Origin: a virus
Taxonomy: Duplodnaviria > Heunggongvirae > Uroviricota > Caudoviricetes
Reading direction: 5' to 3' (one strand)
Virus record (IMG/VR): IMGVR_UViG_2778261094_000007
DNA length: 7,594 nt
The position numbers were made by a program, and so were the translations under genes. Under the pieces are notes generated by a model. That model saw only the letters and a list, made by a program, of their open reading frames with translations. It did not search any database and had not been told where the DNA came from. The first letter of the stretch is position 1. The number at the start of each line of letters is the position of its first letter. Positions 243-7,594 of this stretch are shown here, in pieces.

Positions 243-806
243 ATGCAAAAGCTACTTGATGCAGCGGAGCCGGAGATCAGAAATATTATTTTAATGGGCT
301 TGTTTTCAGGATGCAGATTAGACGAACTGGCAAGCCTGAAAAAGTCAGAGGTTGTAACTGTGGAAGGAATACGCTGTTTTTATATCAGCAAGAGTAAGAC
401 TAAAGCAGGGATCAGACACGTTCCGATACATTCAAGACTATCGATTATTGTCGATGAATATTTAAATCATAATTATGGTGAATATTTGTTCCCTCACTCG
501 AACAAAGTAAAAAGAATCGACGGCAAGAAAGGCCCGTTCTATTCTCAAGCATTCTCACGTTTACGTCGTAGCGTCTTGCCAATCGCTACAGATAGACAAT
601 GCTTTCACAGCTTGCGCGGGATGTTTATCACTTGTCTTGATCGTGCCGGAGTGCCTGAACAGCGGATCGGAGCCATTACCGGACATACAGAGCAGAGAGC
701 TAAAACAGAAGCCTTTCGCACCTACTCACAAGGGGCAAGCATTCCAGAATTAGCTGAATATGTAGAATTAGTAAAATATGAATTAAATATTGATTTTAAG
801 GCGTAA
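243..806 (+). CDS. int: Tyrosine recombinase / phage-type integrase, C-terminal catalytic domain only (5'-truncated, probable remnant)
   Basis: Translation carries the ordered tyrosine-recombinase catalytic residues: Arg in FSGCRLDE (315-317), Lys-rich hairpin KSKTK, H-x-x-R in HSLRG (606-617), His in ITGH (684-686), Tyr in RTYSQ (723-725). The frame is open upstream to 78 and encodes linker-like sequence (LGSLYEFAKRRYDGIPDSNPF) but contains no ATG/GTG/TTG and is closed by TAA at 75-77; no Shine-Dalgarno before ATG 243. Confidence 0.8.
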   Translation: MQKLLDAAEPEIRNIILMGLFSGCRLDELASLKKSEVVTVEGIRCFYISKSKTKAGIRHVPIHSRLSIIVDEYLNHNYGEYLFPHSNKVKRIDGKKGPFYSQAFSRLRRSVLPIATDRQCFHSLRGMFITCLDRAGVPEQRIGAITGHTEQRAKTEAFRTYSQGASIPELAEYVELVKYELNIDFKA

Positions 807-836: not shown

Positions 837-1493
837 CTATTTCACTTCTCCGTCATACGTCGGGAGGGTGTCTTTAGTGGTGCTGGCTGTTCCTGCATTG
901 GTTGGCACTCGGCTTTTTACCTGTCCGCCTGTGCTCTTAGGTGATGCGGTCTTTACAGCAATAGCATTAGTGGTTGCATAGCTCACCAGGCGGATTTGTT
1001 CGAACTGCAAATCGAACTGTAAAGCTGATTCTGTTTTATATTCGTAGTCAATGCCTGTCAGAATCATATTATCAAACGTCTTATGCTCTGTGCTTACAAT
1101 AATAGGCTGTCTGGCATTCATTATTTCATCAAGATAAGCAATAGCCTGTGAACACCTGTTACCGTTCACCCCTGCACTTGATAGCATATCACCACGTAAT
1201 GCTAATGGTGTTTCTGTAATAATGCCTGAAAGCATAAGTTTATTATTCTTGATCCTGACATTATCAGATACATCATTACCATCCTGCACAGGATACGATG
1301 TAACATCGGCAGAACGTGAAACCTTAGTTGCCGGAACAGCGTCAAAAGTAATAGCTTTATAACTGGCTATCGTTGATGCATTTTCGTTATTCAGGTTGCT
1401 ACATATAATGGCAAATCCGTTATCAGATTTAACCTTGCTGTTAGATGTATTAATGTTAGATGTGCTGTTGATCTGACTTTCTTTGATAGCCAT
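837..1493 (-). CDS. Hypothetical protein, 218 aa, Asn/Ser/Thr-rich low-complexity termini; possible virion or tail-associated protein (function not established)
   Basis: Long ORF; ATG at 1493 preceded by AAGGA (1507-1503) with 9-nt spacing; last gene of the co-directional cluster, ending at the terminator hairpin. Confidence 0.65.
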   Translation of the reverse strand: MAIKESQINSTSNINTSNSKVKSDNGFAIICSNLNNENASTIASYKAITFDAVPATKVSRSADVTSYPVQDGNDVSDNVRIKNNKLMLSGIITETPLALRGDMLSSAGVNGNRCSQAIAYLDEIMNARQPIIVSTEHKTFDNMILTGIDYEYKTESALQFDLQFEQIRLVSYATTNAIAVKTASPKSTGGQVKSRVPTNAGTASTTKDTLPTYDGEVK

Positions 1494-1515
1494 TTATATT
1501 AATCCTTGTGTAATG

Positions 1516-1544
1516 AGCGGAAAGCAATAAATATTGCCCCCGCT
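1516..1544 (-). promoter_or_regulatory. Nested intergenic stem-loop (outer agcgg/ccgct, inner gcaata/tattgc) between the 633-aa and 218-aa genes
   Basis: Outer 5-bp stem 1516-1520 / 1540-1544 and inner 6-bp stem 1524-1529 / 1532-1537; sits in the 73-bp gap just 5' of the 218-aa gene ribosome-binding site. No U-tract on the minus strand, so more likely an RNA processing or stability element than a terminator. Confidence 0.3.
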
Positions 1545-1566
1545 TTATTATTAGTTATCGTTAAAC

Positions 1567-3468
1567 TTAGTTAACGCTACTCTGTCCTGACAACGTGCTA
1601 AGAATCAGATTCGAACTAAACTGATTGTTGTTCGCTCTGATCTCAGTGCGGATTAAATCCTGAAAGCCGGGACCGTTAGGGATGACGTTAACAGAGATCA
1701 TATCACTCGGCACCGTAACCTGTGCATTCACGTTAACAGGGGTTGCGTATTGACGTTGTAGGCTTACAGTCGGCTGATAGGCTTCTGCTTTACGTGCAAC
1801 AAGGGTTGATCCGTAGCTGTTAGCATTGCCATTAATTAAATCAGTCCACCACCCTGGAACGCCGGACTGTGTTTCCTCACCGCGCACAATACGCCCTACA
1901 TCTCTCGTATCGAGTCCAGTTGCATAACGAATACCTTCATTGATAATCGTTGATGGCGACCATTCCCCATCTGTAACAGCGTCCATAACCTTTTGTGTCT
2001 CAGGTCGGTTATCATTCTCACCACGGCTAAGATGTTTATTAATCCAGCTTGTGATTTGATTCCCGTAAGAAGTCATAGAGGTCAGTAATACAGCGCCTTG
2101 TTTAGCCAAATCCCCGAACGATGCACCAACACCATAAGCTGCATTCTGTAAGGCTTTGCTTTCTTCCGGTTTGAGTGCTGGCATGTTGGCTATGCCATCA
2201 AAGAAGCCCAAAATAGCCTGATTCGATAGTCCATCTGTCAGACGGTCAAAGGCTGTAGCTGTCTTGTTAGCTGCGCGATATTGCTCTTTCTGTGCTTCTG
2301 TCAGTAGCTGCCCGTTGTTTTTCATATCAACCATCGTTTTACGGAACTCTTCCCCATCACGGGAAAACATCTTGAGATAATGGCTGGCATCGTCTGCTAA
2401 TGGTTCGATCAGGGATATGATGGCTTCTTTAGTCATTCCTCGGCGTTCACCTTCTCTCACCACGTCTTGTAGGAGTTGCAGCGGTCGCCCCTGGTAGGAA
2501 GCTATCTTATCTTTGTTCCATGCAAAGGCATTCTGAATATCATTTAATGATCCTTCCCCGCCTCGCCACTCTTTTTTCTTACTATCCCATTCAGCAGTTC
2601 GGCTTTGATGACCAATGCGTTCGTTTAAGTCTTTGATATTATCAGTGGTCTTGTCCGCGCTTGCACTTGATACACCGTTTGCCCTCCCCCAATTAACCAT
2701 TGCAGCCACCTGATTGCTATCGGCACCTACCAGATCGCTCATCTTCTGCAATTCCATACGTTCACGGGCTTTTTCCATTCCAGCAGATACAGCCATACTT
2801 CCTAAGCCAACGGCAGCGCCGCCGATAATGCCACCAACACCGCCCATCATTAACGCGCCACCGCCGCTAACACCTTCTTTGTGGAGCTTCTTAGCAGTAA
2901 CTGGATATACCCCCCCAGCGGCAGCATTACGACGCGTAGCAGCGGCTGCGGCTCGTCTTTCTAATGTGATGCGGTCACGGATCAGGGCATTCATCTTCGC
3001 TTGCGATATAGCGCCGGATTCATAGAGGCGGGTTTGTTCCTTAATGTAACGTAGAGCATCGTGATATTTCTTAATATCCATCCCTTCGCCATAGCGGGAA
3101 TTGTTCTTGATGCCTTGTAACTGGCGATATGATGCAAGGCGCTTGATCTCTGCCTTTTCAGCAATTGAGGCTTGTTTAGCCTGTGCTTTAGCGAGGTTTT
3201 TAGCTTCCTGTAGCTTCTGTTTAGTGCTGGCTTTAGATGCCTGTGTCTCAGATTTAACAGCCTGCTTAACATGCTGATCATGCTGGCGCTGAATCTCTTT
3301 TCCCAGCCTCTGTAAATCTTTCTGACGTGCTGCCGCCACTTGCACAGGTTTGATCCCCTGCATCTTCTTTTGTAGCTTATCCACTTCATTCTTAGCTTTC
3401 TGTAAGCTCTTGAAATCAGTGGTAAATGTCACAACATTACTAATTCGTGAGGCGTTAATTTCTAACAT
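1567..3468 (-). CDS. Large coiled-coil plus glycine-zipper membrane-segment protein, 633 aa; tape-measure-like or ejection/pilot-like protein
   Basis: 1.9-kb ORF. N-terminal ~170 aa are K/Q/A/E-rich heptad-like sequence (coiled coil); aa ~201-231 read GGGALMMGGVGGIIGGAAVGLGSMAVSAG (DNA 2776-2868), a glycine-zipper hydrophobic segment typical of tape-measure and membrane-inserting phage proteins; C-terminal ~400 aa globular. AGGGA 10 nt upstream of ATG 3468. Confidence 0.85.
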   Translation of the reverse strand: MLEINASRISNVVTFTTDFKSLQKAKNEVDKLQKKMQGIKPVQVAAARQKDLQRLGKEIQRQHDQHVKQAVKSETQASKASTKQKLQEAKNLAKAQAKQASIAEKAEIKRLASYRQLQGIKNNSRYGEGMDIKKYHDALRYIKEQTRLYESGAISQAKMNALIRDRITLERRAAAAATRRNAAAGGVYPVTAKKLHKEGVSGGGALMMGGVGGIIGGAAVGLGSMAVSAGMEKARERMELQKMSDLVGADSNQVAAMVNWGRANGVSSASADKTTDNIKDLNERIGHQSRTAEWDSKKKEWRGGEGSLNDIQNAFAWNKDKIASYQGRPLQLLQDVVREGERRGMTKEAIISLIEPLADDASHYLKMFSRDGEEFRKTMVDMKNNGQLLTEAQKEQYRAANKTATAFDRLTDGLSNQAILGFFDGIANMPALKPEESKALQNAAYGVGASFGDLAKQGAVLLTSMTSYGNQITSWINKHLSRGENDNRPETQKVMDAVTDGEWSPSTIINEGIRYATGLDTRDVGRIVRGEETQSGVPGWWTDLINGNANSYGSTLVARKAEAYQPTVSLQRQYATPVNVNAQVTVPSDMISVNVIPNGPGFQDLIRTEIRANNNQFSSNLILSTLSGQSSVN

Positions 3469-3502
3469 GTTAATTGTTTCCCTGTATTATGATTGTTGTT
3501 TG

Positions 3503-3700
3503 TTATTGTTTTTTAAAGCAATAATATTGGATTGCCTCAAAAGTGCTGCATCCAGTCTGAAAGACACGCTGCCGCACATTATTCGAATCAATTGAAAGCA
3601 TTCTGCATAAGGCACTGACATTGATTATTGAGTCATCGCTAATAGCTGCCAGTTCTTTTACAGATTTAAGAATTAATGCCTGTGAATTTTCTGTGTTCAT
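3503..3700 (-). CDS. Small hypothetical protein, 65 aa
   Basis: ORF in the same orientation between the capsid-like and 633-aa genes; ATG at 3700 preceded by a purine-rich GAGAGAAAA stretch; non-low-complexity composition. Short, so uncertain. Confidence 0.45.
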   Translation of the reverse strand: MNTENSQALILKSVKELAAISDDSIINVSALCRMLSIDSNNVRQRVFQTGCSTFEAIQYYCFKKQ

Positions 3701-3826
3701 TGGTTTTCTCTCACATATATATTTTTATTTGGGTTTGTAGACAGTAGAAAAACAAAAAAGGGCAAGAGACAGCGCATATTTTGCTTATATGATTATCCCT
3801 TACCCTTATTGCCCCGATTATTTCCA

Positions 3827-3843
3827 GACGATGGGGAATCGTC
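3827..3843 (-). promoter_or_regulatory. Stem-loop gacgat-gggga-atcgtc 13 nt downstream of the capsid-like gene stop; candidate partial terminator or mRNA 3'-stabilising hairpin
   Basis: Perfect 6-bp stem with 5-nt loop read directly; not followed by a U-run on the minus strand, so not a canonical intrinsic terminator. Confidence 0.3.
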
Positions 3844-3856
3844 TATTAACGCTTTA

Positions 3857-4888
3857 TTACGCAGCAGATCCGAAGATGATAGCTTGCGGAATGTTGTTTA
3901 CTGGCAGATAAGATGTCTCAGTAACCACAGATGGGAATTGGAATTCATCCTTGATTAGATATTGGTGATGTAACACGGCATCTTGACCTAACTCAGCATG
4001 ACGCACACCAACGCCGCTATGAAGCTGGTAACACTGTGCCGCTTTATCCATTACCGGAACAATTGCGAAACCGTTCTCTCCGATGTGAGCAACAATCTCA
4101 GGAAACATTGACACGTCAATAACAGTGATCCCACCAATCTGGAAAGAGTCATAGGCTGGGTTAGAATCAACCATACGGGTAAACAGGGCCGTAGCACTCG
4201 CATCGCCTGCATATTTCACCATGTCACTGATCAGCGGGTTAGATGACAAACCATCAGCAGCAGCGCCAGCAGCAAAGATAATTACACCAGTTCGCTTTGC
4301 AGCAAGACCAGACCCCAGCTTTTCACTCTGTAAGCGCACCGCTTTACGAATAGCAAGGAACGGGTTAACAGTAGTCGATGCAAAGTCGATAGCGGGTACC
4401 GTGGTTTTAGCCTGACCGTCGAGGAAGTCGAGATCACCTTGTCCGGCATATTCAGATTCAACTTTCAGGCCCAGCAGCGCGGTAATCAGATCCACTTCAA
4501 CACGGTTTGCGTGTGAACGGTAATGAGCCTCAGAGAAATCATTAACCGCTACCAGCATAGCATCAGAACGGTTTGGATATTGGCGGCTGTATTGTTCCAG
4601 GTCACGAGAAGTAACAGCGTTAATACTGCCGACGTGTTTCATCTGGAAAAGTTTGTTTGACCATTCCTGACGTTTAGAGGCGTTCCAGTCGCTTTGAGCG
4701 TAAGGCGAGGTTTCCCCAGCTACCTGCACAAACTGATCGATCAGGTCGGTAAGAAGAATGCTGTTTTCTGTATGATATTGCACATCGAACAGATCGAGAT
4801 TAGTAATCAGGGTATTAAGTGCATTCTCATAAGCAAAAGGAGTTACTACCGCAGTATTAACGCCAAAATATGTTGATAAATCATTCAT
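3857..4888 (-). CDS. Putative major capsid protein, 343 aa (size and position compatible with a lambda gpE-type capsid protein; assignment by context only)
   Basis: Long ORF with a strong ribosome-binding site (AAGGAAAATAATA-ATG), directly downstream of a ~127-aa Ala/Val-rich gene in the decoration-then-capsid order seen in lambda (gpD 110 aa, gpE 341 aa); low Cys, rich in A/V/S/T/D. No sequence-level identity to lambda gpE could be confirmed by eye. Confidence 0.8.
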   Translation of the reverse strand: MNDLSTYFGVNTAVVTPFAYENALNTLITNLDLFDVQYHTENSILLTDLIDQFVQVAGETSPYAQSDWNASKRQEWSNKLFQMKHVGSINAVTSRDLEQYSRQYPNRSDAMLVAVNDFSEAHYRSHANRVEVDLITALLGLKVESEYAGQGDLDFLDGQAKTTVPAIDFASTTVNPFLAIRKAVRLQSEKLGSGLAAKRTGVIIFAAGAAADGLSSNPLISDMVKYAGDASATALFTRMVDSNPAYDSFQIGGITVIDVSMFPEIVAHIGENGFAIVPVMDKAAQCYQLHSGVGVRHAELGQDAVLHHQYLIKDEFQFPSVVTETSYLPVNNIPQAIIFGSAA

Positions 4889-4902
4889 TATTATTTTCCT
4901 TG

Positions 4903-5286
4903 TTAAGTCGTAGGGATCGCAAGTTCTTCATAACCAGCAATTACAAAGCCGAGAGATTGCAGTTTTGCAATAACACTTGCCTTTTCCATGCTGTTAAATT
5001 CAATCCCATCTTCAGCCAGAATAACGAAAGTAGGATGTGCAACCACTACGCTTTCCTGTCCTTCATAAGCCGGTTCAACTACTACGTGAGCAATATCAGA
5101 TGCAGTTGTTGCTTTGGTGCCATCGGCTTTCAGCAAAGCCCCGACAATAAGATCGTCAGTGAGAGGTGAAGCCAGTTTGACGAGGCGATCTTGCAGCACT
5201 GGATCAGCAGCGTAAGCTACTACCTTACAGCGTGAACGGGAATTATCCGCATTCACTGCTTTTAATTTTCCATATGGGTTAGCCAT
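4903..5286 (-). CDS. Putative head decoration protein, 127 aa (lambda gpD-like by size, position and loose motif resemblance)
   Basis: ORF immediately upstream of the capsid-like gene (14-nt gap) with the same AAGGAAAATAAT initiation motif; segments SRCKVVAYAAD and GALLKADGT loosely resemble lambda gpD SRKLVAW and GILAVAADQ. Low-confidence function. Confidence 0.75.
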   Translation of the reverse strand: MANPYGKLKAVNADNSRSRCKVVAYAADPVLQDRLVKLASPLTDDLIVGALLKADGTKATTASDIAHVVVEPAYEGQESVVVAHPTFVILAEDGIEFNSMEKASVIAKLQSLGFVIAGYEELAIPTT

Positions 5287-5290
5287 AAGA

Positions 5291-5488
5291 TTATTTTCCT
5301 TTCAGTTGTTTAATTTTAGATTTAAGGGCATCAGCAAGACTAACCGCATCAGCCGATTTAAATAATTGGGCAGTGGTAGAACGAAGACTTTCGGGAGTAA
5401 CTCCCAACAGTGCGGCAACCTTAATGAGGTTTTCATCACTAACAATCATCGTTTCCCCGTCTTTGCTGATAATCATTTCTTGTTTCAT
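5291..5488 (-). CDS. Small hypothetical protein, 65 aa from ATG 5488 (the ORF track extends to a TTG at 5530); first gene of the structural cluster
   Basis: ATG at 5488 is preceded by AGGAA with ~9-nt spacing, whereas the TTG at 5530 has no Shine-Dalgarno and adds a hydrophobic extension that overlaps the upstream hairpin. Its TAA stop (5293-5291) lies inside the ribosome-binding site of the next gene. Confidence 0.6.
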   Translation of the reverse strand: MKQEMIISKDGETMIVSDENLIKVAALLGVTPESLRSTTAQLFKSADAVSLADALKSKIKQLKGK

Positions 5489-5520
5489 AAATAACGTTCC
5501 TGTTAGTGCCAGACAAATAA

Positions 5521-5568
5521 AAAGCCCCAATGCCGTAAGAGGTTAATTCTGACCAGCAAAGGGGCTTT
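5521..5568 (-). terminator. Terminator-like hairpin (stem aaagcccc / ggggcttt, ~32-nt loop) followed on the minus strand by UUUUUAUUUG, ending ~30 nt upstream of the first structural gene
   Basis: 8-bp stem arms at 5521-5528 and 5561-5568 read directly; minus-strand sequence downstream of the stem is ggggctttttatttg. The unusually long loop lowers confidence. Confidence 0.35.
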
Positions 5569-6425
5569 AACGTGCGGGCAATTACATAATTGATAAGTTA
5601 AACTATAAGAGGATTAAACATATCAGCAAATACACTTTTTAAATATACTTGATGATATGCTTAAAGGGTGAATAGATACTCCTGAAAACATGCTCTTAGG
5701 AAAACATGCGGAATCAATCAGGAATATCTATTCGGGGCGCGGTGGCCAACCGCTATCTTTCATGGTGTGGATGCACCAGTCAGATTTTAAGGAATCACTA
5801 TTCCAATCTACTCACAGATTAAATTTTTAATAATGATTAACTACACCAACAGTAATCTACCGTTTCAGAAAATCGTTTTTACAACCAAAGCTTATAGATC
5901 CGCATTCTATAAAACCCGTTTTGCTATCAATATTTCCAAAGTTTATTGCACCATTCTTAGCTAAACTCTCTCTGCTTGCGGCTAACGCTATGCAGATGAT
6001 TGTTTTTGACAACAACTTAATAGATTATTCTGTTACTAACTTCTGTCATTAAATAATAGTTTAATGATGTTAGTAAATAGTTATAAAATATAACTATCAG
6101 TGTAAGGCTCTTTAATGTTTTCTGACAAAATAAGGAGCTTTAGGATAAGCATAGATGAAAAATAAGAGCGGGAAGGGCAAGGAGATAACACCTACCCGCT
6201 TTTATCAAAATTAAGCACAATGCCTAACAACATTCATCAACACAACGTAGAAACAATCAACAATCAAAGAGGGAGTTATGATTATTCTAAAACTTCTTGA
6301 GAGATGGAAGGTAATATTTGTTAGAGGTTAATGCCACTCAACCTTTGAGGCTATCACCTTCCATATGCAGGGATTTATGACAGTAGAAGGATTAACACCA
6401 GTCAAAACCTTTTTATCTACCCCTA

Positions 6426-6445
6426 ATTTCATTATATAATGAAAT
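6426..6445. promoter_or_regulatory. Perfect 20-bp palindrome atttcattat-ataatgaaat; candidate operator or protein-binding site
   Basis: Sequence equals its own reverse complement over 20 bp; lies 28 bp downstream of the 102-aa gene stop in the AT-rich spacer; related ttcattat repeated at 6466-6473. Confidence 0.3.
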
Positions 6446-6472
6446 TGTTATAAATGCAAATGATTTTCATTA

Positions 6473-6781
6473 TCACTTAGAAGAAATAGCACTTTTTGCT
6501 AAATCATCTACTAATTGCTGAATCTCTTCACTTGCAGCCTTTAACGTGCTGGCGGTGTCTGTGATGATTTGAGTGCACAGCCTGGCATCGTCCTCTGATA
6601 GCTCTAAATCGCTCACCAGAGAGATAAAATCGTCAAGGCTTACATTCACCTTCATTAAGCTAATAACGCATTGAGAGAGCGTGTAATCGCATAAATCTGA
6701 ATAGGCTTGATTTATTCTTGTTTGTAGTGAGATAGTCAGATCTAAAAGTTGTTCCATTGCATTGCTAATATCTTCTTCCAT
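6473..6781 (-). CDS. Small strongly acidic hypothetical protein, 102 aa
   Basis: ORF with AAGGAG ~10 nt upstream of ATG 6781; its start overlaps the stop of the upstream gene (TAATG, 6783-6779), indicating translational coupling; composition is strongly acidic (many D/E, few K/R). Confidence 0.7.
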   Translation of the reverse strand: MEEDISNAMEQLLDLTISLQTRINQAYSDLCDYTLSQCVISLMKVNVSLDDFISLVSDLELSEDDARLCTQIITDTASTLKAASEEIQQLVDDLAKSAISSK

Positions 6782-7026
6782 TATGCGGCTTCTCCTTGTA
6801 ATGCATCATTAATCATATTCAATACGATGTTAAAAGGTGTCTTGAGCGTCAGCACTTCATCACGATAACGCTCTAATGCTTCGTAGTCTTCTGTTTCTTT
6901 TGCCAGTCGGATTAACTCAGCATAGTTTTTTGCATCAGACAGGATCATCTGAAATAATTGTGTTTCTTGAATATAGCCAATCATTATTTTTCCTTTTTCG
7001 AATATTTTCATTGGGCGCTTATACAT
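6781..7026 (-). CDS. Small hypothetical protein, 81 aa (alternative start at ATG 6984 giving 67 aa)
   Basis: ORF inside the coupled operon; ATG 7026 has only a weak GGGTG upstream, whereas the in-frame ATG at 6984 is preceded by AAAAAGGAAAAATA, a strong Shine-Dalgarno resembling that of the capsid-cluster genes. Confidence 0.65.
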   Translation of the reverse strand: MYKRPMKIFEKGKIMIGYIQETQLFQMILSDAKNYAELIRLAKETEDYEALERYRDEVLTLKTPFNIVLNMINDALQGEAA

Positions 7027-7041
7027 ACACCCATCATTTTA

Positions 7042-7500
7042 TTAGTTAGAACGTTTGTTAGAAGCTAATGTATCTTCTAAATGAGCCATCAGATCGACTT
7101 CCGATGCACCACCTACACAATTATTGAAAGCGTTAAATCCCAAAAAATGATGATAGGAGCTAAACCCTAAAAGCTGCCAACGTTTCAGAGTGCCATCAGA
7201 AATGATAGTTTGTTTTCTTGTTCTTGGGCGAAAGTAAACGCCTGGCATTGACTGGATTATTTCTAATTCTTCATCGCTTAATTCAGGGGATTCTGCTTCA
7301 AGAATAAATATTATCTCTTCCCCTGGAATTTCGTTATTGGTGTGTGTCGGTGGACGTTGTCTTGTTGAATTGAAGTTACTGTTTTTTTCAATACGTTTTA
7401 AGTTATTACGTTTCTTTTTCCCATTTTCCCTCTTTTTATGTGGATTATAAAAACTTAATGTCATTGTTACGATGAATATCGCCATAAATGCATTTGCCAT
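7042..7500 (-). CDS. Hypothetical protein, 152 aa: N-terminal hydrophobic segment, Lys/Arg/Asn-rich linker, acidic stretch, C-terminal domain
   Basis: 459-nt ORF in ~30% GC DNA where stop codons are frequent; N-terminus AFMAIFIVTMTLSFY is hydrophobic (possible membrane anchor or signal), followed by KKRENGKKKRNNLKR. No clear Shine-Dalgarno before ATG 7500, so the start is uncertain. Confidence 0.55.
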   Translation of the reverse strand: MANAFMAIFIVTMTLSFYNPHKKRENGKKKRNNLKRIEKNSNFNSTRQRPPTHTNNEIPGEEIIFILEAESPELSDEELEIIQSMPGVYFRPRTRKQTIISDGTLKRWQLLGFSSYHHFLGFNAFNNCVGGASEVDLMAHLEDTLASNKRSN

Positions 7501-7594
7501 ATGTATTGCCCGATCTGGGTAATGACTCCAACTTATTGATAGTGTTTTATGTTCAGATAATGCCCGATGACTTTGTCATGCAGCTCCACCGATT

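Follow-up and report, generated by a model that had tools for sequence, protein, structure and literature searches.

A conserved block of small orphan genes, probably part of the early operon of a satellite-like element in Escherichia coli chromosomes

Introduction

Satellites of virulent phages are, to our knowledge, well studied only in Vibrio cholerae, where PLE is a satellite of the virulent myovirus ICP1, and our literature searches agree with this. Capsid-forming phage-inducible chromosomal islands (cf-PICIs), satellite-like islands of Enterobacteria, encode a whole head and packaging module, i.e., portal, protease, terminase subunits and connectors, and take only tails. PLE is reported to hijack ICP1 capsid proteins (PMC8096241). 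The DNA considered here is the IMG/VR virus record IMGVR_UViG_2778261094_000007, a stretch of 7,594 nucleotides (nt) that is referred to as the window throughout. An earlier note on this DNA had singled out a block of three small genes at positions 6473-7500 and read it as a candidate phage accessory system, or moron. The genes proved uncharacterised and conserved, as that note had it, and they are not an accessory three-gene moron, so that the observation was confirmed in part and its interpretation supported in part. In all likelihood, the block represents distal core genes in the early operon of a satellite-like element of 13.35 kb that is found in chromosomes of E. coli.

The element resembles PLE in several ways. 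Both are integrative islands in the size range of about 13-18 kb that encode an integrase and a replication initiator and contain iterons, and both have many small orphan genes in co-directional operons, an incomplete virion gene set and an apparent link to a virulent and not to a temperate phage. The element has no sequence homology to PLE genes, however, and its own homologues of capsid, cement, tape-measure and tube-initiator proteins would be a further difference. With cf-PICIs it shares the form of a satellite-like island with its own capsid gene(s). Unlike them, it has a tape measure and a tube initiator, while no portal, protease or terminase was found, and its structural genes are related to virulent 150-kb myoviruses. 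The value of the locus lies in the context which it exposes, namely an undescribed satellite-like element with an apparent link to virulent coliphages, together with a structured leader RNA and a mini-peptide, both conserved; the three orphan proteins, the mini-peptide and the leader RNA are obvious places to seek new regulatory or takeover mechanisms.

Genomic context of the block

The window matched E. coli chromosomes at a site bordered on one side by the ETT2 island or, in genomes that lack it, by a permease gene, and on the other by tRNA-Gly-actS-xdhABC. In strain D3 (L001), which is free of insertion sequences (IS) in this region, a 22-nt direct repeat (TGGAGCGGGCGAAGGGAATCGA) was found at positions 11403-11424 and 24756-24777, i.e., 13,353 nt apart, and the copy at 24756 is the 3' end of tRNA-Gly (glyU). 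These repeats are the predicted att sites bounding an element of 13.35 kb, which was present in approximately 5% of complete E. coli genomes. In the literature library searched, no description of it turned up. In D3 the element starts with a tyrosine integrase, followed by the late cluster on the other strand and by a gap of about 1 kb poor in open reading frames (ORFs). After the gap come p102, p67, p127, p89, p222, an ORF of 62 amino acids (aa) and p60. A non-coding stretch of about 1.7 kb then leads to the last three genes, for a serine recombinase, a YecR-like lipoprotein and an 85-aa product.

From p60 through p102 the genes run in the same orientation, and we infer that they form a single transcription unit. 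A candidate early promoter, TTGACA-17-TAAAGT, was located upstream of p60, no convincing terminator was found inside the p60-p102 run, and inside the early-operon block no promoter rose above chance level. The p222 protein matched HTH_36 as well as the PHROG replication-initiator/DnaD-like families (phrog_270/186/391), and the 62-aa ORF gave a weak match to transcription regulators and has a sequence that looks ribbon-helix-helix-like. Upstream of the early operon, at L001 positions 21829-21930, there are four 22-nt iterons (GATAGGAACTCATTTCCTAGGT-like) with internal dyad symmetry, which are likely an origin of replication or an operator array. The element thus carries what is expected of a satellite, an integrase (406 aa), att sites (the 22-nt repeats), an initiator-like protein of its own (p222) and a likely origin (the iterons). 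Its set of virion and lysis genes is incomplete: no terminase, portal, sheath, tube or lysis genes were found within the 13.35 kb.

At one end of the element in the variant L034 (2282-4623), the Dit-like and integrase genes are replaced by cargo. This cargo encodes two proteins, one of 332 aa that combines CapR-homology and T5orf172 domains and one for superinfection immunity (Imm_superinfect). The two domains have been discussed for PLE and ICP1, and their full-length combination is typical of homing-endonuclease-like phage genes (PMC8096241). A PLE-like repression by the L034 protein was considered and set aside as weak evidence, the protein having the full-length, homing-endonuclease-like form and not that of the short CapR.

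Genes and proteins of the block

The genes of the block and the position of a deletion in it are as follows.

7406-7500, minus strand: mini-ORF encoding a short hydrophobic peptide (MANAFMAIFIVTMTLSFYNPHKKRENGKKET; 31 aa in intact copies)
7042-7424, minus strand: p127 gene, start ATG 7424-7422 with a GAGGG Shine-Dalgarno sequence; frameshifted in the window
7415-7419, minus strand: A5 run with a 1-nt deletion; A6 in strains D3, B7A and TW10573
6781-6984, minus strand: p67 gene, ATG at 6984 with an AGGA Shine-Dalgarno sequence; acidic protein of 67 aa, isoelectric point (pI) 4.3
6473-6781, minus strand: p102 gene, acidic protein, pI 4.05, net charge -13; start overlaps the p67 stop

The three co-directional ORFs of the earlier note were all present on the minus strand (7500-7042, 152 aa; 7026-6781, 81 aa; 6781-6473, 102 aa), and so was the TAATG stop/start overlap of the last two at 6783-6779. 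The AT-richness of the region was borne out as well, with a GC content of about 36.5% at 6401-7400 vs 45-53% in the tape-measure and capsid genes. The first ORF did not hold as a native gene. It is a chimera of the mini-ORF and p127 joined by a 1-nt deletion: alignment with the intact D3 copy showed one A missing from the window in the run GGGAAAAAAG, where the window reads GGGAAAAAG (A5, 7419-7415), and translation from the native p127 start in the window gives MGKRNVIT-stop. A 66-nt query over the A run matched 181 complete E. coli genomes, none of them at ≥99% identity (0/181), and each of the matches listed spans 67 nt, i.e., one extra base. The long 152-aa ORF exists because the deletion brought the upstream mini-ORF in frame with p127, and the mini-ORF makes up its N-terminus. 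The hydrophobic N-terminus that had been ascribed to the first protein is therefore present in the window ORF, while in intact copies it belongs to a separate, conserved mini-ORF of 31 aa. The intact strains D3, B7A and TW10573 have a 127-aa protein annotated by RefSeq (WP_000516771.1), which is identical to p127.

The N-terminal helix of p127 is basic and conserved (MGKKKRNNLKRIEK; consensus MG[KR]K[KE]RNxLxRIEK), and the conserved core contains the motifs SPxL[ST]xEE..II, GVYFKPRxR and WQxLGFxS..Y.GW..FN. An exhaustive profile search placed 34 clusters from Enterobacterales in the p127 family, including Klebsiella, K. aerogenes and Rahnella, all of them named 'hypothetical'. One sequence, P0144, has a different N-terminus with a transmembrane (TM) segment on the p127 core, and in P0153 the N-terminal half of p127 is joined to p67.

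For the second gene, 81 aa and a gap of 15 nt had been given; the conserved start is the ATG at 6984, which yields 67 aa and a gap of 57 nt. The AGGA site and this start were kept in all variants, and the 14-codon extension was absent or closed by a stop in L005- and L036-type copies. The acidic character described for the 102-aa product was upheld by the net charge and pI listed above. In k-mer/HMMER searches of 5.8 billion proteins, homologues of p67 and p102 were found in Escherichia only, and for p127, too, these searches returned relatives from Escherichia alone, the wider family coming from the profile search. RefSeq names p102 'transporter' and p67 'ABC transporter ATPase', but no domain, TM segment or homology was found behind either name, and both should be dropped from annotation. 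Since MAFFT repeatedly aligned part of p67 with the p102 N-terminus, paralogy of the two was considered; BLASTP found nothing, and the idea was rejected. A natural read-through fusion of p67 and p102 (P0001, 170 aa) was also encountered, as were variants (P0186 and L009) in which p222 is joined to the C-terminal half of p67 and p89 and p127 are lost.

In each of the three lineages in which it was compared, the unannotated mini-ORF, 23-37 aa long, lies immediately ahead of p127 or overlaps its start. The window type has 31-37 aa and the form MANAFMAIFIVTMxxSFYNPHKKRE..., the L032 peptide has 34 aa (MESLIFFLVFMIASFFNTARRKPKRR..., positions 9916-10020), and the L034 peptide has 23 aa (MSMLVITAVFVICSFKPIHQKLA, positions 9415-9486). 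Common to them are a TM-like stretch, an SF[YFK][NP] motif and a basic tail. By its size, its single TM-like segment and its basic tail the peptide is similar to type I toxins and phage membrane peptides such as Hok and TisB, but it has no sequence similarity to any family, and no antisense RNA was identified. Its overlap with the p127 start could equally mark a coupling or leader ORF. Fusions of the mini-ORF and p127 through indels in A6 or T5 runs were seen in a few assemblies (P0121-P0127).

None of the three proteins could be assigned to a family. No significant match came up for them in Pfam, PHROGs, NCBIfam or PADLOC, the hits of profile searches against PDB sequences did not rise above noise, and a Foldseek search of the models against PDB and BFVD had no match at E≤0.001. 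The proteins are thus uncharacterised, as had been stated, and the homology to housekeeping or known regulatory proteins that the earlier note had set against its own reading was not found. AlphaFold2 models of p127 and of the natural p67-p102 fusion P0001 had a predicted local distance difference test (pLDDT) score of 55 and 60, respectively, and show helical content only. The P0001 model is all-helical, with three helices in p67 and a hairpin of two long helices in p102, at low confidence.

Small acidic proteins in the early operon of a mobile element bring to mind inhibitors. Indeed, inhibition or takeover is the mode of action of many small early proteins in phages and in the Vibrio PLE satellite, and p67, p102 and perhaps p127 might bind and neutralise host or helper-phage proteins. 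Conceivable targets are restriction enzymes (bound as by a DNA mimic), RNA polymerase and the helper's own factors for replication, packaging or assembly. The pI values of p102 and p67 and the charge of p102 are in line with this, and so are the predicted all-helical folds of both. It also fits that their genes belong to the early operon of a mobile element, and that the structural genes of this element suggest a virulent helper. The fast and mosaic evolution of the genes (25-100% identity within one species), with the highest ratio of nonsynonymous to synonymous substitution rates (dN/dS) in p102, is as expected of arms-race genes. p102 is like Ocr and ArdA in being small, acidic and early-encoded on a mobile element, but it differs from them in having no Pfam match and a predicted simple two-helix hairpin, the latter at low confidence. 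Membership in the Ocr or ArdA family, which had been suggested for the 102-aa protein, was not supported (Pfam scan at E≤0.1, noise only; profile search against PDB sequences, nothing below E=0.03), and no anti-defence or defence profile matched. Classical DNA mimics are more acidic than p102, which is moderately acidic with 19% of acidic residues, and the model at pLDDT of about 60 was too poor for mapping the charge pattern of p102. In addition, the protein variants do not track the tape-measure and capsid module types that would mark helper specificity. Altogether, we regard an inhibitor function as possible, though rather unlikely.

Conservation and selection

The region was found in 290 of 5,426 complete genomes, with ≥80% of it covered in 210, and nearly all of the matches listed have three annotated coding sequences. 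Fourteen mosaic variants of the element were compared. The order p60...p222-p89-p127-p67-p102-gap-late genes was kept in nearly all of them, the exceptions being deletion variants, and in every element variant examined the block was whole or partial at the same place. The element family is mosaic, with at least three types of tape measure, two of capsid/cement, two of integrase and several of p222; the block persists while the surrounding integrase, replication, capsid and tape-measure modules are swapped. The same block with its overlaps was also recovered from the divergent lineages L032 (an E. coli assembly) and L034-L036 (Logan assemblies), in which the replication initiator is replaced by helicase-like proteins of 485-492 aa and winged-helix proteins. 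Identity of these lineages to the window was 49-53% for p127, 27-82% for p67 and 25-26% for p102, the last being positional homologues in L032 and L034. The conservation of the three-gene arrangement, on which the earlier note depended, therefore extends to the 290 complete genomes and to lineages at 25-50% identity. Scans of GTDB species representatives with the Klebsiella p127 and with the capsid alignment found nothing.

Pairwise dN/dS was 0.17 for p127, 0.29 for p67 and 0.51 for p102, with synonymous divergence (dS) up to 1.5-2.5, and these values indicate that all three proteins are under purifying selection. They contradict the notion of meaningless open frames in AT-rich remnant DNA. 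The lack of any family assignment and the damage of the window copy by IS1, IS2 and the frameshift might be taken in favour of that notion, but in addition to the substitution ratios, length, order and overlaps are kept at 25-50% protein identity, and the p127 family occurs also in Klebsiella and Rahnella. On these conservation data meaningless frames are extremely unlikely.

Homologues of p127 and p102 were not found in 50,697 phage genomes, and the block has the replication initiator on one side and the control region of the late genes on the other, away from the cargo sites at the ends of the element. This absence from phage genomes, together with the conserved position in the core, argues for core genes of the element and against morons or cargo, and the accessory-system reading was not supported. 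A defence module, which had also been considered, found no support, as neither the three proteins nor their neighbours matched a component in PADLOC-DB.

The earlier note had further listed toxin/antitoxin and toxin/immunity sets. In such a set, the mini-peptide would be a membrane toxin counteracted by a downstream protein. It is true that a conserved peptide of 23-37 aa with a TM-like segment and a basic tail heads the block, that the genes are tightly packed and overlapping, and that type I toxins and small lysis or exclusion peptides resemble such a hydrophobic mini-peptide. There was no match to a toxin/antitoxin or immunity family in Pfam, NCBIfam or PADLOC, however, and the protein variants recombine independently: p67 of L034 is 82% identical to the window copy vs 26% for p102, and in L016 the identities are 41% for p67, 95% for p127 and 81% for p102. 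Such independent recombination argues against a matched pair. Moreover, frameshift fusions of the peptide and p127 persist in several assemblies, and the block belongs to the fixed core of the element, not to its cargo. We consider a toxin/antitoxin or immunity function very improbable.

Some genomes, e.g., APEC E16002, have two or three places that match the block, so that a genome may harbour several elements of this family, perhaps inserted at other att sites.

Promoter, leader RNA and terminators downstream of the block

The ORF-poor gap between p102 and the late genes contains the following features.

6431-6460, minus strand: sigma-70-like promoter TTTGCA-18-TATAAT, 13 nt past the p102 stop codon
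6158-6425, minus strand: candidate structured leader RNA of about 265 nt with two hairpins, ending in terminator T1; minimum free energy z -3.7
approximately 6200-6158, minus strand: intrinsic terminator T1, hairpin and U-run, free energy (dG) -15.4, z -4.3
5512-5568, minus strand: intrinsic terminator T2, dG -23 kcal/mol, z -3.3

Hairpin 2 of the leader had a z of -5.0. The two terminators are separated by about 600 nt, and T2 ends 25-35 nt before the first late gene (about 25 nt in the window), leaving no room for a separate late promoter; transcription of the late genes therefore appears to depend on reading through two or more terminators. The same layout of promoter, two hairpins, T1 and T2 was found in L032 (11185-12005) and L035 (3560-4375). 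The promoter at the same position in this lineage is TTGACT-17-TATAAT, and the L032 terminator at the T2-equivalent position has dG -15.4 and z -4.0.

Over eleven mosaic variants whose flanking proteins differ widely, the alignment columns at positions 6400-5880 were 97-100% identical. In the joint alignment of the two lineages 95.2% of the pair cells were paired, vs 40-52% when the partners were slid. Twelve pairs were changed on both sides, vs 0-3 in the slid controls, and seven of the twelve fall in the 13-bp stem of hairpin 2; this covariation comes from two lineages, and each double change counts as a single event. The segment CUGGYGUUAAUCCUUCU in hairpin 1 was invariant. Rfam had no match in the window, and a scan of IMG/VR with the 17-nt RNA motif returned 105 stretches, four of which fit the promoter-and-RNA context, all with window-type sequence. 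We regard the cassette as a candidate new regulatory leader RNA, or as a candidate antitermination or processing site.

In layout only, the region is similar to the lambdoid series Q-PR'-6S RNA-tR'-late genes: a last early gene at the place of the regulator, a constitutive-looking promoter, a terminated structured RNA and then late genes guarded by terminators, an arrangement which was found in both lineages. In contrast to lambdoid late control, p127, p67 and p102 have no likeness to Q or N, and p102 is acidic and not DNA-binding-like. The leader is longer than the lambdoid 6S RNA and has no Rfam family. By eye, the register of the basic helix of p127 looks similar to that of the lambda N arm (R6, R11, E13, K14, W18/F18); the likeness had no statistical support and is kept as a lead only.

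The layout, the basic helix of p127 and the finding that the p102 lineage co-varies with the lineage of the RNA cassette led us to propose a mechanism. In intact copies the early promoter appears to drive p60, the ribbon-helix-helix-like protein, p222, p89, the mini-ORF, p127, p67 and p102. The block would then act after the onset of replication, either switching on or gating the terminator-guarded late operon, or taking over the helper phage, or both. In this scheme, the conserved basic helix at its N-terminus makes p127 the candidate for binding nucleic acids, and p67 and p102, both acidic and helical, would serve as protein-binding partners. The best explanation that we can offer for the block, a tentative one whose chances we put somewhat below even, is that it consists of core genes at the distal end of the early operon in a 13.35-kb satellite-like element and acts through such a switch or takeover. 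The mechanism as such, i.e., an early-to-late switch at the downstream cassette and/or a helper takeover, is suggested by the positions of the genes and is possible but doubtful.

Several observations weigh against this explanation. No homology to antiterminators was found (none in Pfam; hhalign of the p127 profile vs lambda N, probability 0.5%). The structure models are of low confidence (pLDDT 55-60) and gave no fold match. Since p102 adjoins the RNA cassette, their co-variation could be simple linkage, and an extra gene of 69-70 aa lies between p102 and the promoter in L032 and L035. The variants L009 and P0186 have lost p89, p127 and half of p67, which means that the block is dispensable for persistence in the chromosome. 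Finally, the late activator may come from the helper phage and not from the element.

Structural genes and the possible helper

The late genes of the window are listed below.

837-5488, minus strand: late structural cluster, including two 65-aa ORFs, one ahead of the cement-like gene and one between the capsid-like and tape-measure-like genes
4903-5286, minus strand: cement-like protein, 127 aa
3857-4888, minus strand: capsid-like protein, 343 aa; its profile weakly matches the N-arm of the phi92 major capsid protein gp124 (E 0.011)
1567-3468, minus strand: tape-measure-like protein, 633 aa (phrog_16051 tape measure, 1e-72)
837-1493, minus strand: tube-initiator/Dit-like protein, 218 aa (Dit_like, 5e-28)

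The 218-aa protein was 63% identical to gp103 of phage phAPEC8 (E 1e-89), which is encoded directly after the tape measure gp104, and it was 60-64% identical to homologues in 132 Phapecoctavirus-type phage records. A second Dit type in the element family was about 53% identical to the same group. The window tape measure shared 32-34% identity with phAPEC8-type tape measures, and over all element types the range was 26-34%. The cement and capsid pair and the tape-measure and tube-initiator pair mirror gp123/gp124 and gp134/gp135 of phi92, respectively, when the phi92 gene roles are taken as published (PMC13450770). These relationships indicate that the structural genes come from the phAPEC8/phi92 lineage of virulent myoviruses of approximately 150 kb. 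Judged by its genes, the element looks like a satellite of virulent 150-kb myoviruses, with a presumed dependence on a helper, or like an island that interferes with assembly.

Given the capsid-like and cement-like genes, p67 and p102 might alternatively be accessories of capsid or tail assembly, serving as internal scaffolds or as size-determination factors for a small head, for which phi29 gp7 and SaPI CpmB are precedents. The element encodes its own capsid-like and cement-like proteins, yet no scaffold or protease was recognisable in it, and p102, acidic and predicted to form a long helical hairpin, has a likeness to small scaffolding proteins. The location of the genes speaks against this role, as they belong to the early operon, with a promoter and two terminators between them and the structural genes, and proteins of this kind are needed in bulk and normally encoded beside the capsid gene. 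Searches by fold and by sequence returned no scaffold either, and such a role appears improbable.

The early-operon explanation preferred above can be carried further. The window may be a damaged copy of an undescribed class of E. coli satellites that parasitise virulent 150-kb myoviruses of the phAPEC8/phi92 type, with a new regulator family and a new structured RNA, a reading that we put forward with reserve and regard as less than probable. A satellite of this class would bring its own capsid, cement, tape-measure and tube-initiator proteins and borrow the rest, and the mini-ORF, p127, p67 and p102 together with the leader-RNA and two-terminator cassette would form its module for the early-to-late switch or for helper takeover. 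An E. coli island with a Phapecoctavirus-like tube initiator (60-64% identity) would offer a tractable second system for the study of satellites of virulent phages. Phapecoctavirus-type phages are common and explored for therapy, and such an island might have a bearing on phage-therapy failure and transduction, as well as on the reprogramming of capsid size and tail length.

Insertions in the window copy

In addition to the frameshift, the window copy is interrupted at both ends.

7518-7594, strand not assigned: IS1 end, 97-100% identity to IS1 in many records
1-76 and 243-806, plus strand: IS2 end (1-76) inside the tyrosine integrase gene, and the leftover C-terminal 187 codons of that gene (243-806)

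The alignment of the window with D3 diverges exactly at the IS1 end, which lies 17 nt upstream of the 152-aa ORF and 3-4 nt past the p89 stop codon of intact elements. The block had been described as an operon of three genes, which did not hold: the operon is cut by IS1 in the window, and intact copies have p89, p222 and p60 ahead of the block on the same strand. The tyrosine integrase has 406 aa in intact strains. With the block cut from its promoter by IS1, p127 frameshifted and the integrase broken by IS2, the module in the window is probably inactive.

IS1 or IS2 was also found at other sites of the same element in TW10573 and B7A, which makes the element a frequent target of IS and one that is often degraded. 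One copy was located outside the chromosome, the only one seen: the plasmid NZ_CP126938.1 (166 kb, E. coli, chicken liver) carries at 29493-38782 88% of the window at 98.5% identity, flanked by IS3-family elements.

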